Below, one piece after another: positions 10,813-32,245 of a DNA stretch of 64,000 nucleotides; position 1 is the first letter of the stretch, and each line of letters starts with the position of its first letter. Source of the DNA: Escherichia coli. Its GTDB lineage: Bacteria > Pseudomonadota > Gammaproteobacteria > Enterobacterales > Enterobacteriaceae. The stretch lies in assembly GCF_045037415.1 (NCBI RefSeq), contig NZ_CP173438.1; one strand, 5' to 3'. The position numbers were made by a program, and so were the translations under genes. Below the pieces are notes generated by a model, which was not told the DNA's origin, did no database searches, and saw nothing but the letters and a program-made list of their open reading frames with translations.

Positions 10813-10983
10813 ATGTTTGTCAAACCTGTTAAAGGGCGGTCAGTGCCTGACCCTGCCCGCGGCGACCTTTTGCCCGCCGAAGGGCGAAATGTTGACGAGA
10901 ACAACTACTGGCTGCGCCGTGAAGCAGCGGGTGATATCCGGCGCGTGAATAAAAAGGTGAACACCGATGACGATAAGCTTTAA
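10813..10983 (+). CDS. Small hypothetical protein, 56 aa (below the ORF-track cutoff)
   Basis: ATG at 10813 to TAA at 10981; fills the gap before the sheath gene. Confidence 0.3.
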   Translation: MFVKPVKGRSVPDPARGDLLPAEGRNVDENNYWLRREAAGDIRRVNKKVNTDDDKL

Positions 10984-12464
10984 CACCATTCCGTCGAATA
11001 CGCTGGTTCCGCTGTTTTATGCGGAAATGGATAACCAGGCGGCGAATACTGCACAGGACAGCGGAGCATCGCTGCTGATTGGTCATGCCAATAACGGTGC
11101 AGAGATTGTTGCCAACAGTCTGGTGCTGATGCCGTCGGCAGACTATGCACGCCAGATTTGTGGTGCGGGAAGTCAGCTGGCGCGTATGGTCGAGGCTTAT
11201 CGCCAGACTGACCCGTTTGGCGAGCTGTATGTGATTGCCGTTCCGGAAGCCACAGGCGCGGCGGCAACGGTTACGCTGACGGTGACCGGGGAGGCAACCG
11301 AAACCGGCACGGTGAATGTTTATGTGGGACGTACCCGCGTGCAGGCACCGGTGACCAACGGCGATAACGTCGCGACGATTGCCAGCAGTATCAAAGATGC
11401 CATCAATGCCGTTCCGACCCTGCCGTTTACTGCCTCATCTTCGGCAGGCGTGGTCACACTGACCGCGCGTCATAAGGGGCTTTGCGGGAATGAAATTCCT
11501 GTCAGCCTCAATTACTACGGCTTTGGTGGGGGCGAAGTGCTGCCAGCGGGCGTACAGATTGCCGTGGCGACGGGGAACGCCGGAACGGGCGCTCCTGTTC
11601 TCACCGGCGCGGTGGCTGCAATGGCGGATGAGCCGTTTGATTATATCGGCCTGCCGTTCAACGACACGGCCTCCGTTAACACGCTGGTGACCGAGATGAA
11701 CGATACCAGCGGTCGCTGGAGCTATGCGCGTCAGCTGTATGGTCATGTGTATACGGCAAAGATCGGCACGCTGTCAGAACTGGTGACCGCAGGTGACCAG
11801 TTTAACCAGCAGCACATTACCCTGGCGGGGTACGAAAAAGAGAACCCAGACGCCTGCCGACGAGCTGGCGGCAAGCCGTACCGCCCGCGCAGCGGTGTTT
11901 ATTCGCAACGATCCGGCACGTCCCACGCAGACCGGTGAGCTGGTGGGTATGCTGCCTGCGCCGAAGGGGAAACGGTTCACGATGACCGAACAACAGACCC
12001 TGCTGTCTCATGGCGTGGCAACGGCGTATGTCGAAAGCGGGGTGCTGCGCATTCAGCGTGATGTCACCACGTACAGGAAAAACGCTTACGGTGTTGCGGA
12101 TAACAGCTACCTCGACAGCGAGACGCTGCATACCAGCGCGTATGTGCTGCGCAAACTGAAATCCGTCATTACCAGTAAGTACGGGCGTCACAAGCTTGCC
12201 AGCGACGGTACCCGCTTTGGTCCCGGTCAGGCGATTGTCACCCCGGCGGTGATCAAAGGGGAACTGCTGGCAACCTACCGTCAGCTTGAGCGTGCGGGGA
12301 TCGTGGAAAACTACGAACTGTTTAAGCAGTACCTGGTTGTGGAGCGTGATGCCAGCGATCCGAACCGCCTGAACACGCTGTTCCCGCCTGACTATGTTAA
12401 CCAGTTGCGTGTCTTTGCCGTGGTTAACCAGTTCCGTCTTCAGTATTCAGAGGAGTCTGCATAA
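10967..12464 (+). CDS. Contractile tail sheath protein (Mu L-like), interrupted by an apparent frameshift at the A-run 11835..11839
   Basis: Two overlapping ORFs (10967..11938 in frame 2, 11793..12464 in frame 0) together give ~500 aa; C-terminal part has a sheath-like LFPPDYVNQLRVFA motif. Confidence 0.7.
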
Positions 12465-12820
12465 TGGCCCGTATCGGGGGAACCTGTTATTTCAAAATTG
12501 ACGGTCAGCAGCTATCGCTGACCGGCGGCATTGAGGTGCCCATGAACAGGACGGTAAATGATGACATCATCGGCCTGGACGGTTCAGTGGACCGCAAGGA
12601 AACTCACCGTGCACCTTATGTCAAAGGGACCTTCAAGGTGCCGAAGAATTTTCCGGTGAGCAAAATCACCTCGTCTGATGAGATGACCATCACTGCCGAG
12701 CTGGCGAACGGTCAGGTCTATGTATTGTTGTCTGCCTGGCTGCACGGTGAAGCGAACCATAATGCCGAAGAAGGCACGGTTGATCTTGAGTTCCACGGTG
12801 AAGAAGGGGATTACCAGTGA
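12464..12820 (+). CDS. Tail tube protein (Mu M-like)
   Basis: 118 aa immediately after the sheath gene. Confidence 0.8.
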   Translation: MARIGGTCYFKIDGQQLSLTGGIEVPMNRTVNDDIIGLDGSVDRKETHRAPYVKGTFKVPKNFPVSKITSSDEMTITAELANGQVYVLLSAWLHGEANHNAEEGTVDLEFHGEEGDYQ

Positions 12821-13140
12821 TTGAGCTTGTACTTAAAAAACCGATCATCGCCCACAAAGAAACACTGCATGTGCTGGAAATACGTGAGCCTACGTATGAC
12901 GAGATTGAGGCGCTGGGGTTCCCTTTCTCTGTTTCGCCTGATGGTGGTATGAAAATGGACAGTCAGGTGGCGCTGAAATATATCCCGCTTCTGGCCGGGA
13001 TCCCGCGCTCGTCTGCAGCGCAGATGACGAAGCTGGATATTTTCAAGGCAGGCATGATTGTAATGCGTTTTTTTACCGGCTTGGAGACGGAAGAGACCTC
13101 CGGAAGCGATTCTACAATGTCGCGTGGTTCTGGAAATTAA
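12817..13140 (+). CDS. Tail assembly chaperone (G-like)
   Basis: 107 aa immediately upstream of the tape-measure gene. Confidence 0.7.
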   Translation: MIELVLKKPIIAHKETLHVLEIREPTYDEIEALGFPFSVSPDGGMKMDSQVALKYIPLLAGIPRSSAAQMTKLDIFKAGMIVMRFFTGLETEETSGSDSTMSRGSGN

Positions 13141-13232
13141 ACCCCCTTGAACTTCGCAGGACGGCTATTTCCCACTTTGCTGATCTGGAGGCAGAGGCCG
13201 TCCGTATAAATGAGGAGATGAAGCATGGCTGA
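12817..13232 (+). CDS. Tail assembly chaperone, predicted -1 frameshift extension product (GT-like)
   Basis: Slippery heptamer T_TTT_TTT at 13068..13074 in the zero frame; the -1 frame stays open to TGA 13230..13232, abutting the tape-measure ATG at 13225. Confidence 0.5.
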
Positions 13233-15126
13233 TAATTTTCAGCTGAAAGCCATCATCACCGCCGTTGACAGGCTGTCCGGCCCGCTTAAAGGTATGCAGC
13301 GTCAGCTTAAGGGGTTTCAGAAAGAAGTCTCCAGCCTTGCTCTGGGCGCTGCCGGGGCGGGTACTGCAATAATGGGGGCACTGGCACTCCCTGTAAAATC
13401 AGCCATCACCCTTGAATCGAAGATGGCTGATGTCCGCAAAGTGGTGGACGGTCTGGATACGCCGGATGCGTTTAAGGCCATGACGGAGCAGGTACGCGCT
13501 TTGTCTACTGAGCTTCCCATGTCTGCAGACGGGATCGCGGAAATTGTGGCGGCTGGCGGTCAGGCCGGGATTGCACGTGATGAACTGATGCAGTTTGCCA
13601 CTGATGCGGTGAAGATGGGCGTGGCCTTTGATACCACGGCTGAAGAGTCCGGGCAGATGATGGCCCAGTGGCGTACTGCGTTTAATATGACGCAGGATGA
13701 AGTGGCTGGGCTGGCTGACAAAATCAACTACCTTGGTAATACCGGCCCGGCGAATGCGAAGAAAATCTCCGATATTGTTACGCGTATTGGTCCTTTAGGT
13801 GGTGTTGCAGGTGTGGCTTCCGGCGAAATCGCGGCAATGGGGGCAACCATTGCCGGGATGGGCGTGGAGTCAGAAATTGCCGCCACAGGGATCAAGAACT
13901 TCATGCTTTCCCTGACCGCGGGAAATTCAGCGACAAAATCGCAGAAACAGGCATTACGTTTTCTGCGGATCAATCCGAAGAAATTAGCTGCTGATATGCA
14001 GAAAGATGCCCGGGGAACCATGCTGTCTGTACTGGATGCGATGGCTAAAGTGCCTAAAGAAAAACAGGCAGCTGTGCTGAATGCCCTGTTCGGGAAAGAG
14101 TCTCTGGGCGCGATAGCACCTCTGCTGACTAACCTTGATTTGTTGCGTACCAACTTCAGGCGGGTTGCGGATTCCCAGCAGTATGGCAGTTCGATGCAGA
14201 AGGAATATGCTTCGAGGGCAGCGACGACGGAAAACCAGCTTTTACTTCTGCAAAATCAACTTGATGCCATTTCTTCCACTCTGGGGGAAACGTTTCTTCC
14301 TGAGGTTAATGATGGTCTTGAAGCGGTAAAACCGCTCCTTGAGGAAGTGAGAACGTTTGTCCGTGAAAACCCGGAGCTCGTTAAGACCATTGCTAAAATC
14401 GGTCTGGCTTTACTGACAGTGGGGGCCGCTGCAGGCTCTTTGTCCAGAATCATGAAAGTTCTCGGCGGTGTGATGAATATGACGCCTGCTAAGGGTCTGA
14501 TTGCTCTTCTGGTCGGTGCCGCTTACCTCATTATTGATAACTGGGAAACCGTAGGTCCTGTCATAAAAAAAGTCTGGCGCGTGGTGGATGAAACGGCGCA
14601 GGCGATGGGGGGATGGGAAACTGTTCTGAAAGCGATCGCCCTGTTTATGACAACCAAATGGGTTGCTGACGTTACCAAATCCATTACCGCAGTGACCAGA
14701 GAGATGCGTACGCTGGGGAAGGTGTCGGCAGAAACGGGATTGATGGGGAAAGGCCGCGGCTTTATCGGGAAGGCCGGGGTATATGGTTTTCTGGGAACCC
14801 TGATGTATGAGCCGGTTAAAGATACTCTGGAAAGTGTTGTTCCTGAAGATACAGTTAACTGGCTGGATAATAAAGGGCTGTTTCTGGCTTCAGACTGGAC
14901 GCCTTTTTTTGATCGTAAAGAGTACGAGCAGTATCAGGCCAGCCTGAGTCAGTACAAACCCAATGTTCCGCTGTTGAATCCATCTTCTTCCATGACACAG
15001 CACAGCGAACTGAAAGTCACGTTCGAGAATGCTCCGCCAGGCATGAAGATAATTGATGTACCGGGCAAAGCCGATCCCCTGATGAAAATCACGCACGATG
15101 TGGGGTATTCTCCATTCAGGCGATAA
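13225..15126 (+). CDS. Tail tape measure protein
   Basis: 633 aa, Ala/Gly-rich with helical repeats; position after the chaperone. Confidence 0.9.
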   Translation: MADNFQLKAIITAVDRLSGPLKGMQRQLKGFQKEVSSLALGAAGAGTAIMGALALPVKSAITLESKMADVRKVVDGLDTPDAFKAMTEQVRALSTELPMSADGIAEIVAAGGQAGIARDELMQFATDAVKMGVAFDTTAEESGQMMAQWRTAFNMTQDEVAGLADKINYLGNTGPANAKKISDIVTRIGPLGGVAGVASGEIAAMGATIAGMGVESEIAATGIKNFMLSLTAGNSATKSQKQALRFLRINPKKLAADMQKDARGTMLSVLDAMAKVPKEKQAAVLNALFGKESLGAIAPLLTNLDLLRTNFRRVADSQQYGSSMQKEYASRAATTENQLLLLQNQLDAISSTLGETFLPEVNDGLEAVKPLLEEVRTFVRENPELVKTIAKIGLALLTVGAAAGSLSRIMKVLGGVMNMTPAKGLIALLVGAAYLIIDNWETVGPVIKKVWRVVDETAQAMGGWETVLKAIALFMTTKWVADVTKSITAVTREMRTLGKVSAETGLMGKGRGFIGKAGVYGFLGTLMYEPVKDTLESVVPEDTVNWLDNKGLFLASDWTPFFDRKEYEQYQASLSQYKPNVPLLNPSSSMTQHSELKVTFENAPPGMKIIDVPGKADPLMKITHDVGYSPFRR

Positions 15127-15735: not shown

Positions 15736-17109
15736 ATGGATTTTTCTCATATTTCTTCGTACCTATCCTCTAATTCTCGAAGTGGCTGGCGTGAAAAGCT
15801 ACTTGAAGCATCATTTCGAGGTGTGCCGTTTAAGGTTGAAGAAGAAAGTGCGGGAACCGGTCGCCGTGTGGAAACACATGAATACCCGAACCGCGACAAG
15901 CCTTATACCGAAGATCTGGGAAAAGTCACTTTCCGCCCGTCCATCACAGCTTATGTGGTGGGAGATGACTGCTTTGACCAGCGCGATCGCCTGATTGACG
16001 CGCTGAATAAACCCGGTCCCGGCACGCTTGTCCATCCGACATACGGTGAGATGAAAGTCTGTGTTGACGGGGAAGTTCGGGTCAGCACATCGAAAAGTGA
16101 AGGGCGTATTGTCCGCTTTGACCTGAAGTTTGTCGAAGCGGGAGAACTCTCTTACCCCACATCAGGTGCGGCGACGGCGCAGACGCTGATGTCATCCTGT
16201 TCTGCACTGGATGACTGCATCAGTGACAGCTTCAGCGGTTTCAGTATCGATGGCGTGGCGGATTTCGTGCAGAACGACGTTATCGGTAATGCCAGCATAA
16301 TGCTGGGGTATGTTTCTGATGCGATGAAAGTGGTGGATTCTACCGTATCGGATGCCGCCAGGCTGTTGCAGGGGGATATCTCGGTACTTCTGCCGCCGCC
16401 ATCGTCAGGCAAAAATTTCGTTGAGCAGGTGCAGAAAATGTGGCGTACCGGGAAACGCCTTTATGGTAACGCCAGCGACCTGGTCACCATGATCAAAACG
16501 CTTTCCGGTGTCAGCCTCGGCAGCGATCTGCAACCGCGCGGCGTCTGGAAAACGGACAGTAAAACCACCGCCACGGCTACGCAGCAGCGTAACGTGGTTG
16601 CCAGCACCCTTCGTACGACCGCAATCAGCGAAGCGGCGTATGCCGTCACGCGATTGCCTGCGCCAACAACTTCCGCGGTGATGCAGAATTCCGCAGTGGG
16701 GCAGGCAACAACACCCGCGCAGAGCACTGGCTGGCCTGCCGTCACGCATCCGGCACTGAACAATGCACCGGCGGTGAAAAACACGGTTGACCTGCCGACG
16801 TGGGAAGAACTGACTGACATTCGCGACACACTGAATACGGCAATTGATAAGGAGTTGTCCCGTACAACCAGTGATGCGCTGTTTCTGGCGCTGCGCCGGG
16901 TGAAAGCAGATCTGAATGCGGATATCAACACGCGCCTTGAACAGTCTGCACGGATCATTCAGCGCACACCGGATGAGGTTTTACCCGCGCTGGTGCTGGC
17001 GGCGACCTGGTTTGATAACGCGGCGCGTGACGCGGACATTATCCGGCGTAATGCCATTACGCATCCCGGCTTTGTGCCGGTGATCCCTCTGAAGGTGCCA
17101 GTGCAATGA
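15736..17109 (+). CDS. DNA circularisation protein (Mu N-like)
   Basis: 457 aa; position after the tape-measure gene in a Mu-like order. Confidence 0.75.
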   Translation: MDFSHISSYLSSNSRSGWREKLLEASFRGVPFKVEEESAGTGRRVETHEYPNRDKPYTEDLGKVTFRPSITAYVVGDDCFDQRDRLIDALNKPGPGTLVHPTYGEMKVCVDGEVRVSTSKSEGRIVRFDLKFVEAGELSYPTSGAATAQTLMSSCSALDDCISDSFSGFSIDGVADFVQNDVIGNASIMLGYVSDAMKVVDSTVSDAARLLQGDISVLLPPPSSGKNFVEQVQKMWRTGKRLYGNASDLVTMIKTLSGVSLGSDLQPRGVWKTDSKTTATATQQRNVVASTLRTTAISEAAYAVTRLPAPTTSAVMQNSAVGQATTPAQSTGWPAVTHPALNNAPAVKNTVDLPTWEELTDIRDTLNTAIDKELSRTTSDALFLALRRVKADLNADINTRLEQSARIIQRTPDEVLPALVLAATWFDNAARDADIIRRNAITHPGFVPVIPLKVPVQ

Positions 17110-18185
17110 ACGACAATGTCACGCTACGGGTAAATGGCCGGGAGTGGAATGGCTGGACATCGGTGCGCATCGGTGCCGGTATTGAACGGCTGGCGCGGGA
17201 TTTCAGTGTGGAGATCACCCGCCAGTGGCCGGGTGATGAGGGTATCACCACGCTTCAGCCGCGCATTAAAAACGGTTCAAAAGTGGAAGTGCTGATTGGT
17301 GATGAGCTGGTGATCACCGGCTGGGTGGAGGCGACTCCCGTTCATTACGATGCCCGTTCGGTCAGCACCGGTATTGCCGGACGTAGTCTGACGGCTGACC
17401 TGATTGACTGTGCAGCCGAACCGACACAGTTTAACGGACGCTCGCTGGTGCAGATTGCGCAGGCGCTTGCTGCGCCTTTCGGCATTGAGGTGGTGAACAG
17501 CGGTGCGCCATCGGGTGTTATTCCTGATGTTCAGCCTGATCACGGTGAAACGGTGATTGAGGTAATCAACAAAATACTCGGTCAGCAGCAGGCACTGGCT
17601 TACGACGACCCGCACGGCAGGCTGGTGATTGGCGGTATTGGCTCAACGCGGGCACATACCGCGCTGGTACTTGGGGAAAATATCCTTTCCTGTGATACGG
17701 AGAAGAGTATCCGGGAGCGGTTTTCTGTTTACCAGGTGGCGGGGCAGCGTGCCGGAAACGACGATGATTTCGGTGAGGCCACCACCACCGCGCTGCGGGC
17801 CCGCACAGAGGACGCATTTATTGCCCGTTACCGTCCGATGTATATCAGGCAGACAGGGCAGGCTACGGGGGCAGGCTGTATTGCGCGTGCTGACTTTGAA
17901 GCCCGACAACGGGCGGCGCGGACGGATGAAACCACCTATGTGGTGCAGGGCTGGCGACAGGGTAACGGTACGCTGTGGCAGCCCAACCAGCGGGTGATTG
18001 TCTTTGATCCGGTCTGTGGTTTTGACAATACCGAACTGCTTGTCTCGGAAGTCACGTTTACTCAGGACCAGAACGGCACCCTGACGGAAATCCGTGTCGG
18101 CCCGCCTGATGCTTATCTGCCTGAACCCGAAGACCCCGGCGCGCGGAAAAAGAAAAAAGCCAGAGTACAGGAGGACCCGTTCTGA
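17106..18185 (+). CDS. Baseplate hub protein (Mu P-like)
   Basis: 359 aa; overlapping chain of baseplate genes. Confidence 0.75.
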   Translation: MNDNVTLRVNGREWNGWTSVRIGAGIERLARDFSVEITRQWPGDEGITTLQPRIKNGSKVEVLIGDELVITGWVEATPVHYDARSVSTGIAGRSLTADLIDCAAEPTQFNGRSLVQIAQALAAPFGIEVVNSGAPSGVIPDVQPDHGETVIEVINKILGQQQALAYDDPHGRLVIGGIGSTRAHTALVLGENILSCDTEKSIRERFSVYQVAGQRAGNDDDFGEATTTALRARTEDAFIARYRPMYIRQTGQATGAGCIARADFEARQRAARTDETTYVVQGWRQGNGTLWQPNQRVIVFDPVCGFDNTELLVSEVTFTQDQNGTLTEIRVGPPDAYLPEPEDPGARKKKKARVQEDPF

Positions 18186-29124: not shown

Positions 29125-29193
29125 GTTTATATCCTTGTCATGTGAATGAGTTTTGAGGATAGCGAAAAAACGTCCAGGGTAACCTTACAGCAG

Positions 29194-29211
29194 CATTACA
29201 ATTTTGTAATG
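29194..29211. promoter_or_regulatory. Perfect inverted repeat in the hiuH-hprR divergent region; candidate HprR/CusR-type response-regulator box
   Basis: CATTACAATTTTGTAATG. Confidence 0.5.
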
Positions 29212-29256
29212 AACCAGGTTGTTTCTATAACATATGATTTATGGCATATTATTTTC

Positions 29257-29928
29257 ATGAAGATTCTACTTATTGAAGATAATCAAAGGACCCAGGAATG
29301 GGTAACGCAGGGGCTTTCCGAAGCGGGTTATGTCATTGATGCCGTTTCTGATGGCAGAGATGGGCTTTATCTTGCGCTGAAGGATGATTATGCATTGATC
29401 ATTCTGGATATTATGCTTCCGGGTATGGATGGCTGGCAGATCTTACAAACGTTAAGAACGGCAAAGCAAACTCCTGTTATTTGCCTTACAGCAAGGGATT
29501 CTGTCGATGACAGAGTCAGAGGGCTGGACAGTGGAGCAAATGATTATCTGGTAAAACCTTTTTCATTTTCTGAGTTGCTGGCAAGGGTTCGGGCACAATT
29601 AAGGCAACATCACGCTTTGAATTCAACATTAGAAATCAGTGGCTTAAAAATGGACTCTGTCAGTCAAAGTGTGAGCAGGGACAATATCAGTATTACACTG
29701 ACGCGCAAGGAGTTTCAGTTACTTTGGCTACTGGCCTCCAGAGCTGGCGAGATTATACCCAGAACGGTTATTGCGAGTGAAATTTGGGGAATCAACTTTG
29801 ATAGTGATACCAATACGGTGGATGTCGCCATTCGCAGGCTCCGCGCAAAAGTTGATGATCCTTTTCCTGAAAAGCTAATCGCCACAATCCGGGGGATGGG
29901 CTATTCATTCGTAGCGGTAAAAAAATAA
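29257..29928 (+). CDS. hprR: Two-component response regulator HprR
   Basis: ATG at 29257 gives a 223-aa OmpR-family protein starting MKILLIEDN; the ORF-track start at 29146 is an upstream extension. Confidence 0.9.
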   Translation: MKILLIEDNQRTQEWVTQGLSEAGYVIDAVSDGRDGLYLALKDDYALIILDIMLPGMDGWQILQTLRTAKQTPVICLTARDSVDDRVRGLDSGANDYLVKPFSFSELLARVRAQLRQHHALNSTLEISGLKMDSVSQSVSRDNISITLTRKEFQLLWLLASRAGEIIPRTVIASEIWGINFDSDTNTVDVAIRRLRAKVDDPFPEKLIATIRGMGYSFVAVKK

Positions 29929-31393: not shown

Positions 31394-32245
31394 TTAACTC
31401 GCGTAAGCTGCCAGCATTTCCTGCGCCGCCAGTTTACCCAACGCATTCGCTGCAAAAGGACTGTCGCCGGTGAGAAGTTTACGGTCCTTATGTACTCGCC
31501 CGGTGATGTCGTCATTAATGATGTTCATGCCCATTTTCTTCAACTCTTCGCCGAAGTACCAGGTGAGATGACCCGGCATATAGCCAATATCTGGCGTTTG
31601 TTTGTCTGCGGCGTCTGGGAATGCGCAAATAGAATAACCATTCAGTGGGTTATCGCTGTGGCGAAGTGCCAGAAAAGCTGCCGGACCGTGGCAAAGGGAG
31701 ATAACAAAACGGTCATTTTTGATTGCCCACTGTAAAGCGGCAGCCACGTCCTGGCTTTCTGGTAAACCAATAAGTGCGCCATGCCCACCAGGAACAAAGA
31801 TTGCTGCATATTCGCTATCAGCGTTGAGGCTGGCGACAACATCCGCGAGTTTCTTCGGATTACGGAATAACGATTTATGCTGTTCAAAGAATGGCATTAC
31901 TTTTTCATCTTTGTGCGGCATAGCCCAGTATTCAAACTTGGTCATCAGACCGGAAATGGTCGCCACTTCGAATTCGAAACCTGCAGCATGGAGATGATAC
32001 AACGGCAGCAACGTTTCAATCGGATGGTTACCGGTCGAGAACAGTTTTCCGTTATCGGTCGGCAAATAACGTTCGTCCGCGGCGATCACCAGAATTTTAT
32101 GTTTACCGCGATACGGTTTTGGATAGTCCACGCCATCAAGATCAGAGACGGGACTCGTATATTGGCTAAGCGAATATTCTGAAGGGAAGAACGCATTATC
32201 TTCAGCAATATCGACCTGCGGGTTTTTACTTGTTTGAACAGTCAT
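31394..32245 (-). CDS. hchA: Protein/nucleic-acid deglycase Hsp31
   Basis: 283-aa DJ-1/PfpI-type protein matching HchA. Confidence 0.9.
   Translation of the reverse strand: MTVQTSKNPQVDIAEDNAFFPSEYSLSQYTSPVSDLDGVDYPKPYRGKHKILVIAADERYLPTDNGKLFSTGNHPIETLLPLYHLHAAGFEFEVATISGLMTKFEYWAMPHKDEKVMPFFEQHKSLFRNPKKLADVVASLNADSEYAAIFVPGGHGALIGLPESQDVAAALQWAIKNDRFVISLCHGPAAFLALRHSDNPLNGYSICAFPDAADKQTPDIGYMPGHLTWYFGEELKKMGMNIINDDITGRVHKDRKLLTGDSPFAANALGKLAAQEMLAAYAS

Follow-up and report, generated by a model that had tools for sequence, protein, structure and literature searches.

A predicted programmed -1 ribosomal frameshift in the tail-assembly chaperone gene of an SfIV-like prophage of Escherichia coli

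The tail-assembly chaperone gene of a prophage in the 64,000-nt stretch of Escherichia coli DNA analysed here (the window) very probably carries a programmed -1 ribosomal frameshift of the tail-assembly-chaperone type, as represented by G/GT of phage lambda and E/E+E' of phage P2. This reading, which is drawn from the DNA of the prophage and of its relatives, is carried by the anatomy of the site, its conservation and a coding signature in the -1 frame, all three of which were observed directly. The features concerned are as follows.

10967..12464, tail sheath gene, split (Pfam, PHROGs)
12464..12820, + strand, tail tube gene, 118 aa (PF10618 Tail_tube, E = 1.7e-32; phrog_185)
12817..13140, + strand, zero-frame chaperone ORF ('G'-like), GTG start, 107 aa (PF10109 Phage_TAC_7; phrog_166)
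13068..13074, + strand, slippery heptamer T_TTT_TTT (cgT TTT TTT), encoding Phe-Phe (codons 85-86), where the PF10109 domain ends at its C-terminal side
13074..13232, + strand, predicted -1 extension ('T'-like), 52 codons (YRLGDGRDLRKRFYNVAWFWKLNPLELRRTAISHFADLEAEAVRINEEMKHG) and the TGA at 13230..13232
13075..13140, + strand, predicted dual-coding overlap of the G tail in the zero frame (TGLETEETSGSDSTMSRGSGN) with the first part of the -1 extension
13212..13217, + strand, Shine-Dalgarno-like GAGGAG for the tape-measure gene, within the -1 extension and 7 nt upstream of the ATG, unchanged throughout the clade-1 alignment
13225..15126, + strand, tape-measure gene, 633 aa (PF10145, E = 2.2e-42; phrog_28)
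15736..17109, Mu gpN-like gene (Pfam)
17106..18185, Mu gpP/gp44-like gene (Pfam)

The chaperone ORF begins within the end of the tail tube gene, the TGA stop of the latter and the GTG start of the former overlapping as GTGA. Its 107-aa product scores 32.1 bits against PF10109 (cut-off 25), with residues 5-86 corresponding to profile positions 3-78 of 79. As the initial annotation had proposed, T_TTT_TTT lies at 13068..13074 in the zero frame of this ORF: the surrounding codons are ATG CGT TTT TTT ACC GGC, which places the run in the correct X_XXY_YYZ phase. The -1 frame had been described as open for about 50 codons up to a stop at 13230..13232, and 52 codons are counted from TAC at 13074, the first codon after the slip, to the TGA at that position. 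The predicted products are thus G with 107 aa and GT with 138 aa (86 + 52); the predicted junction of GT reads R-F-F-Y-R (region ...GMIVMRFFYRLGDGR...), and the tail specific to G is FFTGLETEETSGSDSTMSR. The end of the extension had been said to abut directly the start of the tape-measure gene; the ATG is indeed at 13225, but the extended ORF overlaps the tape-measure gene by 8 nt (13225..13232, ATGGCTGA). The -1 frame is open from 12942 onward, and ATG, GTG and TTG are absent from it between 12942 and 13217; having no start codon before 13218, it cannot be an ORF with its own initiation, whatever the size. The +1 frame is closed by a stop at 13148..13150, two codons past that of G. A scan for promoters and terminators on the + strand inside G/T found nothing.

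The neighbouring genes form a contractile-tail module according to Pfam and PHROGs, and the host element is an SfIV/phiP27/ST64B-like prophage with a Mu-like contractile tail. Its tail region shares 99% identity with Shigella phage SfIV and 99.9% with the prophages of many E. coli genomes. When a 937-nt query extending from the tube gene to the tape-measure start was used, homologous DNA was found in 1081 of 5426 complete E. coli genomes, 210 of which contain the full 937-nt stretch; serotype-converting phages of Shigella have it as well. The sheath gene of this prophage consists of two overlapping ORFs, 10967..11938 and 11793..12464, which result from one extra A near 11843 (GAGAACCC versus GAG-ACCC) when compared with the gene of E. 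coli DA33137, SfIV and SfV, which is intact and 1497 nt long. Either the prophage is defective and the gene a pseudogene, or the split reflects a sequencing error. Because the sheath is disrupted, this prophage copy may be unable to build tails, unless the extra base is a sequencing error, and the frameshift signal may for the same reason no longer matter for phage production in this copy. In the corresponding region of DA33137 (L173, 9306..10003), the programmed frameshift of an IS1 transposase is annotated by PGAP as a joined CDS; the IS1 insertion is apparently absent here, the 283-aa ORF at 31394..32245, which by its position we take to be hchA, being intact.

For the comparison with relatives, 170 related loci were gathered from phage, viral-contig and E. 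coli collections; a second scan of viral contigs gave only near-identical SfV-type loci, and the diversity came from tblastn against the phage collection. In 167 of these loci the extension lies in the -1 frame relative to the chaperone domain. The initial annotation had regarded the arrangement as the conserved G/GT type, and had named a -1 frame that is not conserved in homologues as the result that would speak against it; the homologues examined bear the arrangement out, in the slot between the tube and tape-measure genes, with PF10109, and in lineages whose proteins are as little as about 33% identical. An in-phase heptamer is present in 166 of the 167 loci, as T_TTT_TTT in 85 and T_TTT_TTC in 81. 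The source taxa are E. coli, Shigella, Salmonella, Yersinia, Pantoea, Edwardsiella, Pseudomonas and Burkholderia, and the lineages are represented by SfIV, phiP27 and ST64B; by SfV, SfI, SfII, Pantoea AH07 and Edwardsiella EPP-1; by Yersinia YeP1-3; by Pseudomonas DVM-2008; by Burkholderia BgVeeders33; and by Stutzerimonas PG1, in which the run is T_TTT_TTG. The fusion proteins of the other lineages are 33-43% identical to that of this prophage. In every lineage the run is located at the same aligned residues (..[GRNSP]-F-[FL]), the extension contains the motif A-x-[FY]-[WF]-x-x-[NDS]-P, and the extension ends at the tape-measure start or a few bases beyond it. In SfV/SfI, AH07, EPP-1, YeP1, DVM-2008 and BgVeeders33 the motif has the narrower form A-x-[FY]-W-[KR]-x-[ND]-P. 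The codon before the run is GGT, CGT, AAT, AGT or CCT across the lineages, encoding five amino acids (G, R, N, S and P) and always ending in T, which points to selection on the nucleotide heptamer and not on the protein.

In one SfV-type locus (L113, about 1448..1456), GGG TTT TTC stands in place of GGT TTT TTC, a synonymous substitution by which the heptamer loses its first T, so that just the tetramer U_UUC is left. Paraburkholderia phage IPK (L174, 950..1206; record marked UNVERIFIED) keeps a homologous -1 extension (..LAHFWNVSPAHI..), and at its chaperone gene the slippery heptamer is absent, G-F-F being encoded by GGC TTC TTC, and no shift site is evident. The -1 frame of IPK opens at 991, only three codons before the stop of G (998..1000).

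The coding signature was examined as the mean pairwise difference at codon positions 1/2/3 among 16 gapless clade-1 sequences, which have 72-99.5% nucleotide identity to this prophage. In the part that encodes G only (12828..13067), the zero-frame values are 0.145 / 0.061 / 0.427. In the overlap (13075..13137), they are 0.159 / 0.304 / 0.238 in the zero frame and 0.238 / 0.159 / 0.304 in the -1 frame, and past the stop of G (13141..13229) the -1 frame gives 0.104 / 0.037 / 0.403. At the heptamer the third-position variability thus passes from the zero frame into the -1 frame, and within the overlap the -1 frame resembles coding sequence and the zero frame does not. This pattern indicates that, starting at the heptamer, purifying selection acts on the -1 frame.

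We infer the slip event, how often it would take place and what the two products would do as follows. Ribosomes would start at the GTG at 12817, coupled to the stop of the tube gene, and would translate the PF10109 domain first. With tRNA-Phe on UUU in the P site (13069-71) and on UUU in the A site (13072-74), a minority would slip back by one base, both tRNAs being able to re-pair perfectly on U_UUU_UU; the slipped ribosomes would then read UAC and 51 further codons up to the UGA at 13230-32, giving the 138-aa GT, and the majority would stay in the zero frame for another 21 codons and yield the 107-aa G. If the two products act as in lambda and P2, coating of the tape-measure protein would fall to the N-terminal domain that they share and recruitment of the tube protein to the extension, and the G:GT ratio would be set by how often ribosomes slip.

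With respect to the efficiency of such a slip, heptamers of the form H_HH.U_UU.Y are among the most efficient shift sites in E. coli (Sharma et al. 2014, PMC4066793). In the same study (PMC4066793, Table S3), UUUUUUU gave 0.326% frameshifting without a stimulator and 10.2% with the IS3 pseudoknot, the corresponding values being 0.121% and 7.6% for UUUUUUC, 0.118% and 0.77% for UUUUUUG, the heptamer of P2, and 0.277% and 43% for GGGAAAG, the heptamer of lambda. From the reporter values without a stimulator, the present site is at least as slippery as the validated sites of lambda and P2. E. coli genes contain far fewer in-phase U7 runs than expected (z = -15.6; PMC4066793).

A search for stimulators gave no convincing element. 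For 13068..13160 and for 36-nt downstream windows in eight phages, MFE folding was no better than that of shuffled sequence, the z-scores ranging from -1.2 to +1.1; RNAalifold on two clades gave weak helices and no covariation; Rfam had no match at the site; and no Shine-Dalgarno-like element was seen by eye upstream of the heptamer. A UUGGAG/CUCCGG hairpin (13081..13086 with 13098..13103; 6 bp with a 6-nt spacer) was considered as a stimulator and rejected, there being no compensatory change and the central pair being broken in five of seven sequences. As no RNA stimulator is evident, the efficiency is probably low, under one to a few per cent, and possibly at the basal level of 0.3%. Apart from these candidates, the block GGAGACGG (13083..13090), 9 nt past the heptamer, shows no change among the nine aligned clade-1 sequences, with variable flanks. 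Dual coding (G-D-G and E-T) may explain this invariance, and neither the SfV nor the YeP1 clade has retained the block. SfV (L005, 2459..2477) in turn has a perfect 8-bp hairpin, TGCGCCAG-CTA-CTGGCGCA, inside the -1 extension, the pairing of which is kept in AH07 and EPP-1 and partly in YeP1; situated 45 nt past the heptamer, it is too distant for a classical frameshift stimulator.

In a broader and, in our view, unlikely form of the frameshift reading, T_TTT_TTY at the end of PF10109 would be an ancient site shared by P2-like phages and by SfV-type phages with Mu-like tails, working without a stimulator and with its output set by a so far unrecognised factor. If this were the case, the candidates for setting the output would be the nascent G domain, a nearby element, for instance GGAGACGG, or mixed slippage by ribosome and polymerase on U7. 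The difference between the T7 and T6C clades (0.33% versus 0.12% basal) would then tune the G:GT ratio to different tape-measure proteins, and a long or short zero-frame tail of G would likewise do so.

The alternative that survives best, and that we nevertheless consider quite improbable, is transcriptional slippage. Some mRNAs would gain one U (or lose two) as RNA polymerase passes the T7 tract, instead of or alongside slippage by the ribosome, and ordinary translation of these would yield the 138-aa protein (or one of 137 aa, with one Phe fewer). The run of seven T is a homopolymer, and the protein produced would be identical (R-F-F-Y-R). The tract is also mutable in DNA, T8 and T5 alleles being found, and the avoidance of U7/A7 in all three phases of E. 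coli genes has been partly ascribed to transcriptional slippage and indels (PMC4066793). However, in 81 of the 166 loci the run is just T6 with a C after it, and in P2 and PG1 it is T6G; productive slippage in bacteria has been described on runs of about nine A or T (PMC5009743), as against seven T here. The run is strictly held in phase and its first T always comes from the preceding codon, neither of which a phase-independent polymerase mechanism would need. Moreover, the homologous T_TTT_TTG site of P2 is accepted as translational (PMC3091744).

It is far less probable that the gene is decayed, that is, that a single chaperone ORF was broken by a 1-nt deletion in the homopolymer and the -1 stretch is its dead remnant. 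The sheath gene of the same prophage does carry a real frameshift lesion, and chaperone alleles with the two parts fused in frame do exist (L012, L093/L094, P0001 and P0003-P0007). All of the full-length 'fusion' proteins in the protein database come from such mutant alleles, for which the following changes were seen.

L012, 1746..1753: T8
P0001: T5, inferred from the 137-aa protein sequence
L093/L094, about 1440: an extra G before the run
P0007 (Shigella flexneri, 661 contigs): fused further downstream, apparently by GGAAAC -> GGAAAAC

The entries P0003 and P0004 are also proteins of natural G/T-fused alleles. Being rare, each arising from a different indel and nested in split clades, the fused alleles are derived; they would make GT only. 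The split form is the usual one in the plaque-forming phages SfIV, SfV, SfI, SfII, phiP27, ST64B, YeP1, AH07 and EPP-1, as in the 167 loci mentioned above, and together with the strong signature of purifying selection in the -1 stretch this effectively refutes decay.

An independent small gene, in which the -1 stretch would be started at its own codon or by re-initiation and no fusion would be made, is just as hard to maintain. phrog_32181 matches the extension only (E = 3.4e-5; PHROGs), which suggests that some annotators call it as a separate ORF, and the SfV clade has a -1 frame GTG 15 nt upstream of the run. That GTG is missing in AH07, YeP1, DVM-2008 and BgVeeders33, however; the -1 frame has no ATG, GTG or TTG until its last few codons in this prophage and in all of clade 1, and conservation of the -1 frame begins right at the heptamer.

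Chance, with a functionless T-run happening to precede an open -1 frame, has next to no probability and is refuted, since the site, phase, extension and end point are kept in lineages whose DNA no longer aligns and the -1 frame carries a coding signature, even though eight of the 89 in-phase slippery heptamers in the 64,000-nt window precede a comparably open -1 frame (heptamers counted in ORFs of at least 100 aa, with the -1 frame open for at least 50 codons and running past the zero-frame stop). With eight similar sites among 89, the pattern in one sequence is not significant in itself, and the significance of the present site rests on its context and on the comparative data. One of the eight is A_AAA_AAA at 29919..29925, at the end of the ORF 29146..29928, which is in phase and is followed by an open -1 frame of 453 codons; this A7 run was ruled out as a recoding site, being an ordinary hprR/hprS gene junction.

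Returning to the frameshift product, an AlphaFold2 model of the 138-aa fusion was calculated from a 13-sequence alignment and has a mean pLDDT of 84. In this model the G part is predicted to consist of a beta-hairpin and helices and the extension of three helices, with pLDDT values of 69-83 per 10-residue block in the extension. Against BFVD, the GT model scores best with a 137-aa 'tape measure chaperone' from Burkholderia phage Mica (E = 1.5e-4, TM 0.48), and the next matches include several tail assembly chaperones. The PDB gave no sequence match and no Foldseek match, and no NCBIfam model matches the GT fusion or P2 E+E'.

The extended 138-aa product is absent from every record checked, RefSeq/PGAP included. 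The annotated records (SfIV, SfV, SfI, phiP27, ST64B, F1055, AH07, EPP-1, YeP1, DVM-2008, PG1, BgVeeders33 and the RefSeq E. coli genome) contain the short ORF only, and the IPK record is without any annotation. PGAP names the same ORF in E. coli DA33137 'phage tail assembly protein', and in the paper on the SfIV genome the gene is a hypothetical protein and the frameshift is not mentioned. In the literature examined, there is no report of both products in vivo for SfIV, SfV, ST64B or phiP27. Frameshifts of this kind in tail chaperones are familiar from tailed phages and are unannotated in this phage group. The value of the present result is therefore mainly one of annotation: a joined CDS would complete the tail-assembly gene set of SfIV/SfV/ST64B/phiP27-type phages, and likewise that of the related tailocin-like elements of Pseudomonas. 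The frameshift site opens no new question.

Among the known systems, lambda gpG/gpGT is alike in its slot between the major tail protein and the tape measure, and in an abundant short product and a rare extended product that share their N-terminus and have a presumed ratio-setting role. The ratio in lambda has been measured as about 30:1 (PMC5009743, summarising in part Levin et al. 1993 and Xu, Hendrix and Duda 2004, 2013, 2014). Lambda differs in its heptamer, G_GGA_AAG, in having no sequence similarity to the present proteins and in its non-contractile tail.

The initial annotation had suggested a comparison with the G/GT pairs of Mu-like phages. The arrangement is indeed conserved in relatives with Mu-like tails, and Mu itself has a homologous tail module (sheath L, tube M, gpN-like and gpP-like baseplate proteins) with the chaperone in the same slot, its gp41 scoring 24.7 bits against PF10109, just under the cut-off. 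Mu is nevertheless not the closest validated parallel. Its gp41 uses a -2 frameshift (Xu et al. 2004, as outlined in PMC5009743), with the open frame and extension in the +1/-2 frame, whereas the +1 frame here is the one that closes at 13148..13150; in addition, PF23746 (Gp41_Mu), the family of Mu gp41, does not match the chaperone of this prophage.

The closest validated parallel is gpE/gpE+E' of P2, with a -1 shift on T_TTT_TTG. P2 produces E of 91 aa and E+E' of 142 aa by a -1 shift at TTTTTTG (Christie et al. 2002, as related in part by Lynch et al., PMC3091744), similar in size to the 107/138 aa predicted here; the P2 site is without downstream structure and its shift is accepted as translational (PMC3091744). 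The P2 record is annotated with the -1 shift, the sequence being GGT TTT TTG at G-F-L (L092, 679..685). As in this prophage, the N-terminal part of the P2 protein is a PF10109 domain (47.5 bits for P2 E, 56.7 for SfV and 26.6 for YeP1), and in P2 E, this chaperone, SfV and YeP1 alike the slip site is residue 85/86, where this domain ends (profile position 78 of 79). In both systems the -1 slip is on a T6N run encoding G/R-F-F/L, the tail is contractile and there is no downstream hairpin, and even the 8-nt overlap is shared, E+E' of P2 ending at 858 and T starting at 851 (L092). P2 differs in the seventh base, which is G there, T here and C in relatives, and in the surrounding tail module, which here is Mu-like (gpL/M/N/P homologues) and not P2-like. 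The extension may possibly be a distant homologue of P2 E', judging from sequence comparisons: hhalign gives E = 0.0018 with a probability of 15%, and MAFFT aligns AWFWKLNPLEL with AVIFHWPPSEL of P2 E'. The family of P2 E', PF06528 (Phage_P2_GpE), has no match at E <= 0.1 in the fusions of this prophage, SfV or YeP1, as against 76 bits for P2, and BLASTP finds no significant similarity between the SfV extension and P2 E' (E = 0.76). Taken together with the position of the run, the comparison means that the slip site of P2 E/E+E' is conserved well beyond the P2-like phages, into phages with otherwise Mu-like tail genes, Mu itself using the -2 shift.
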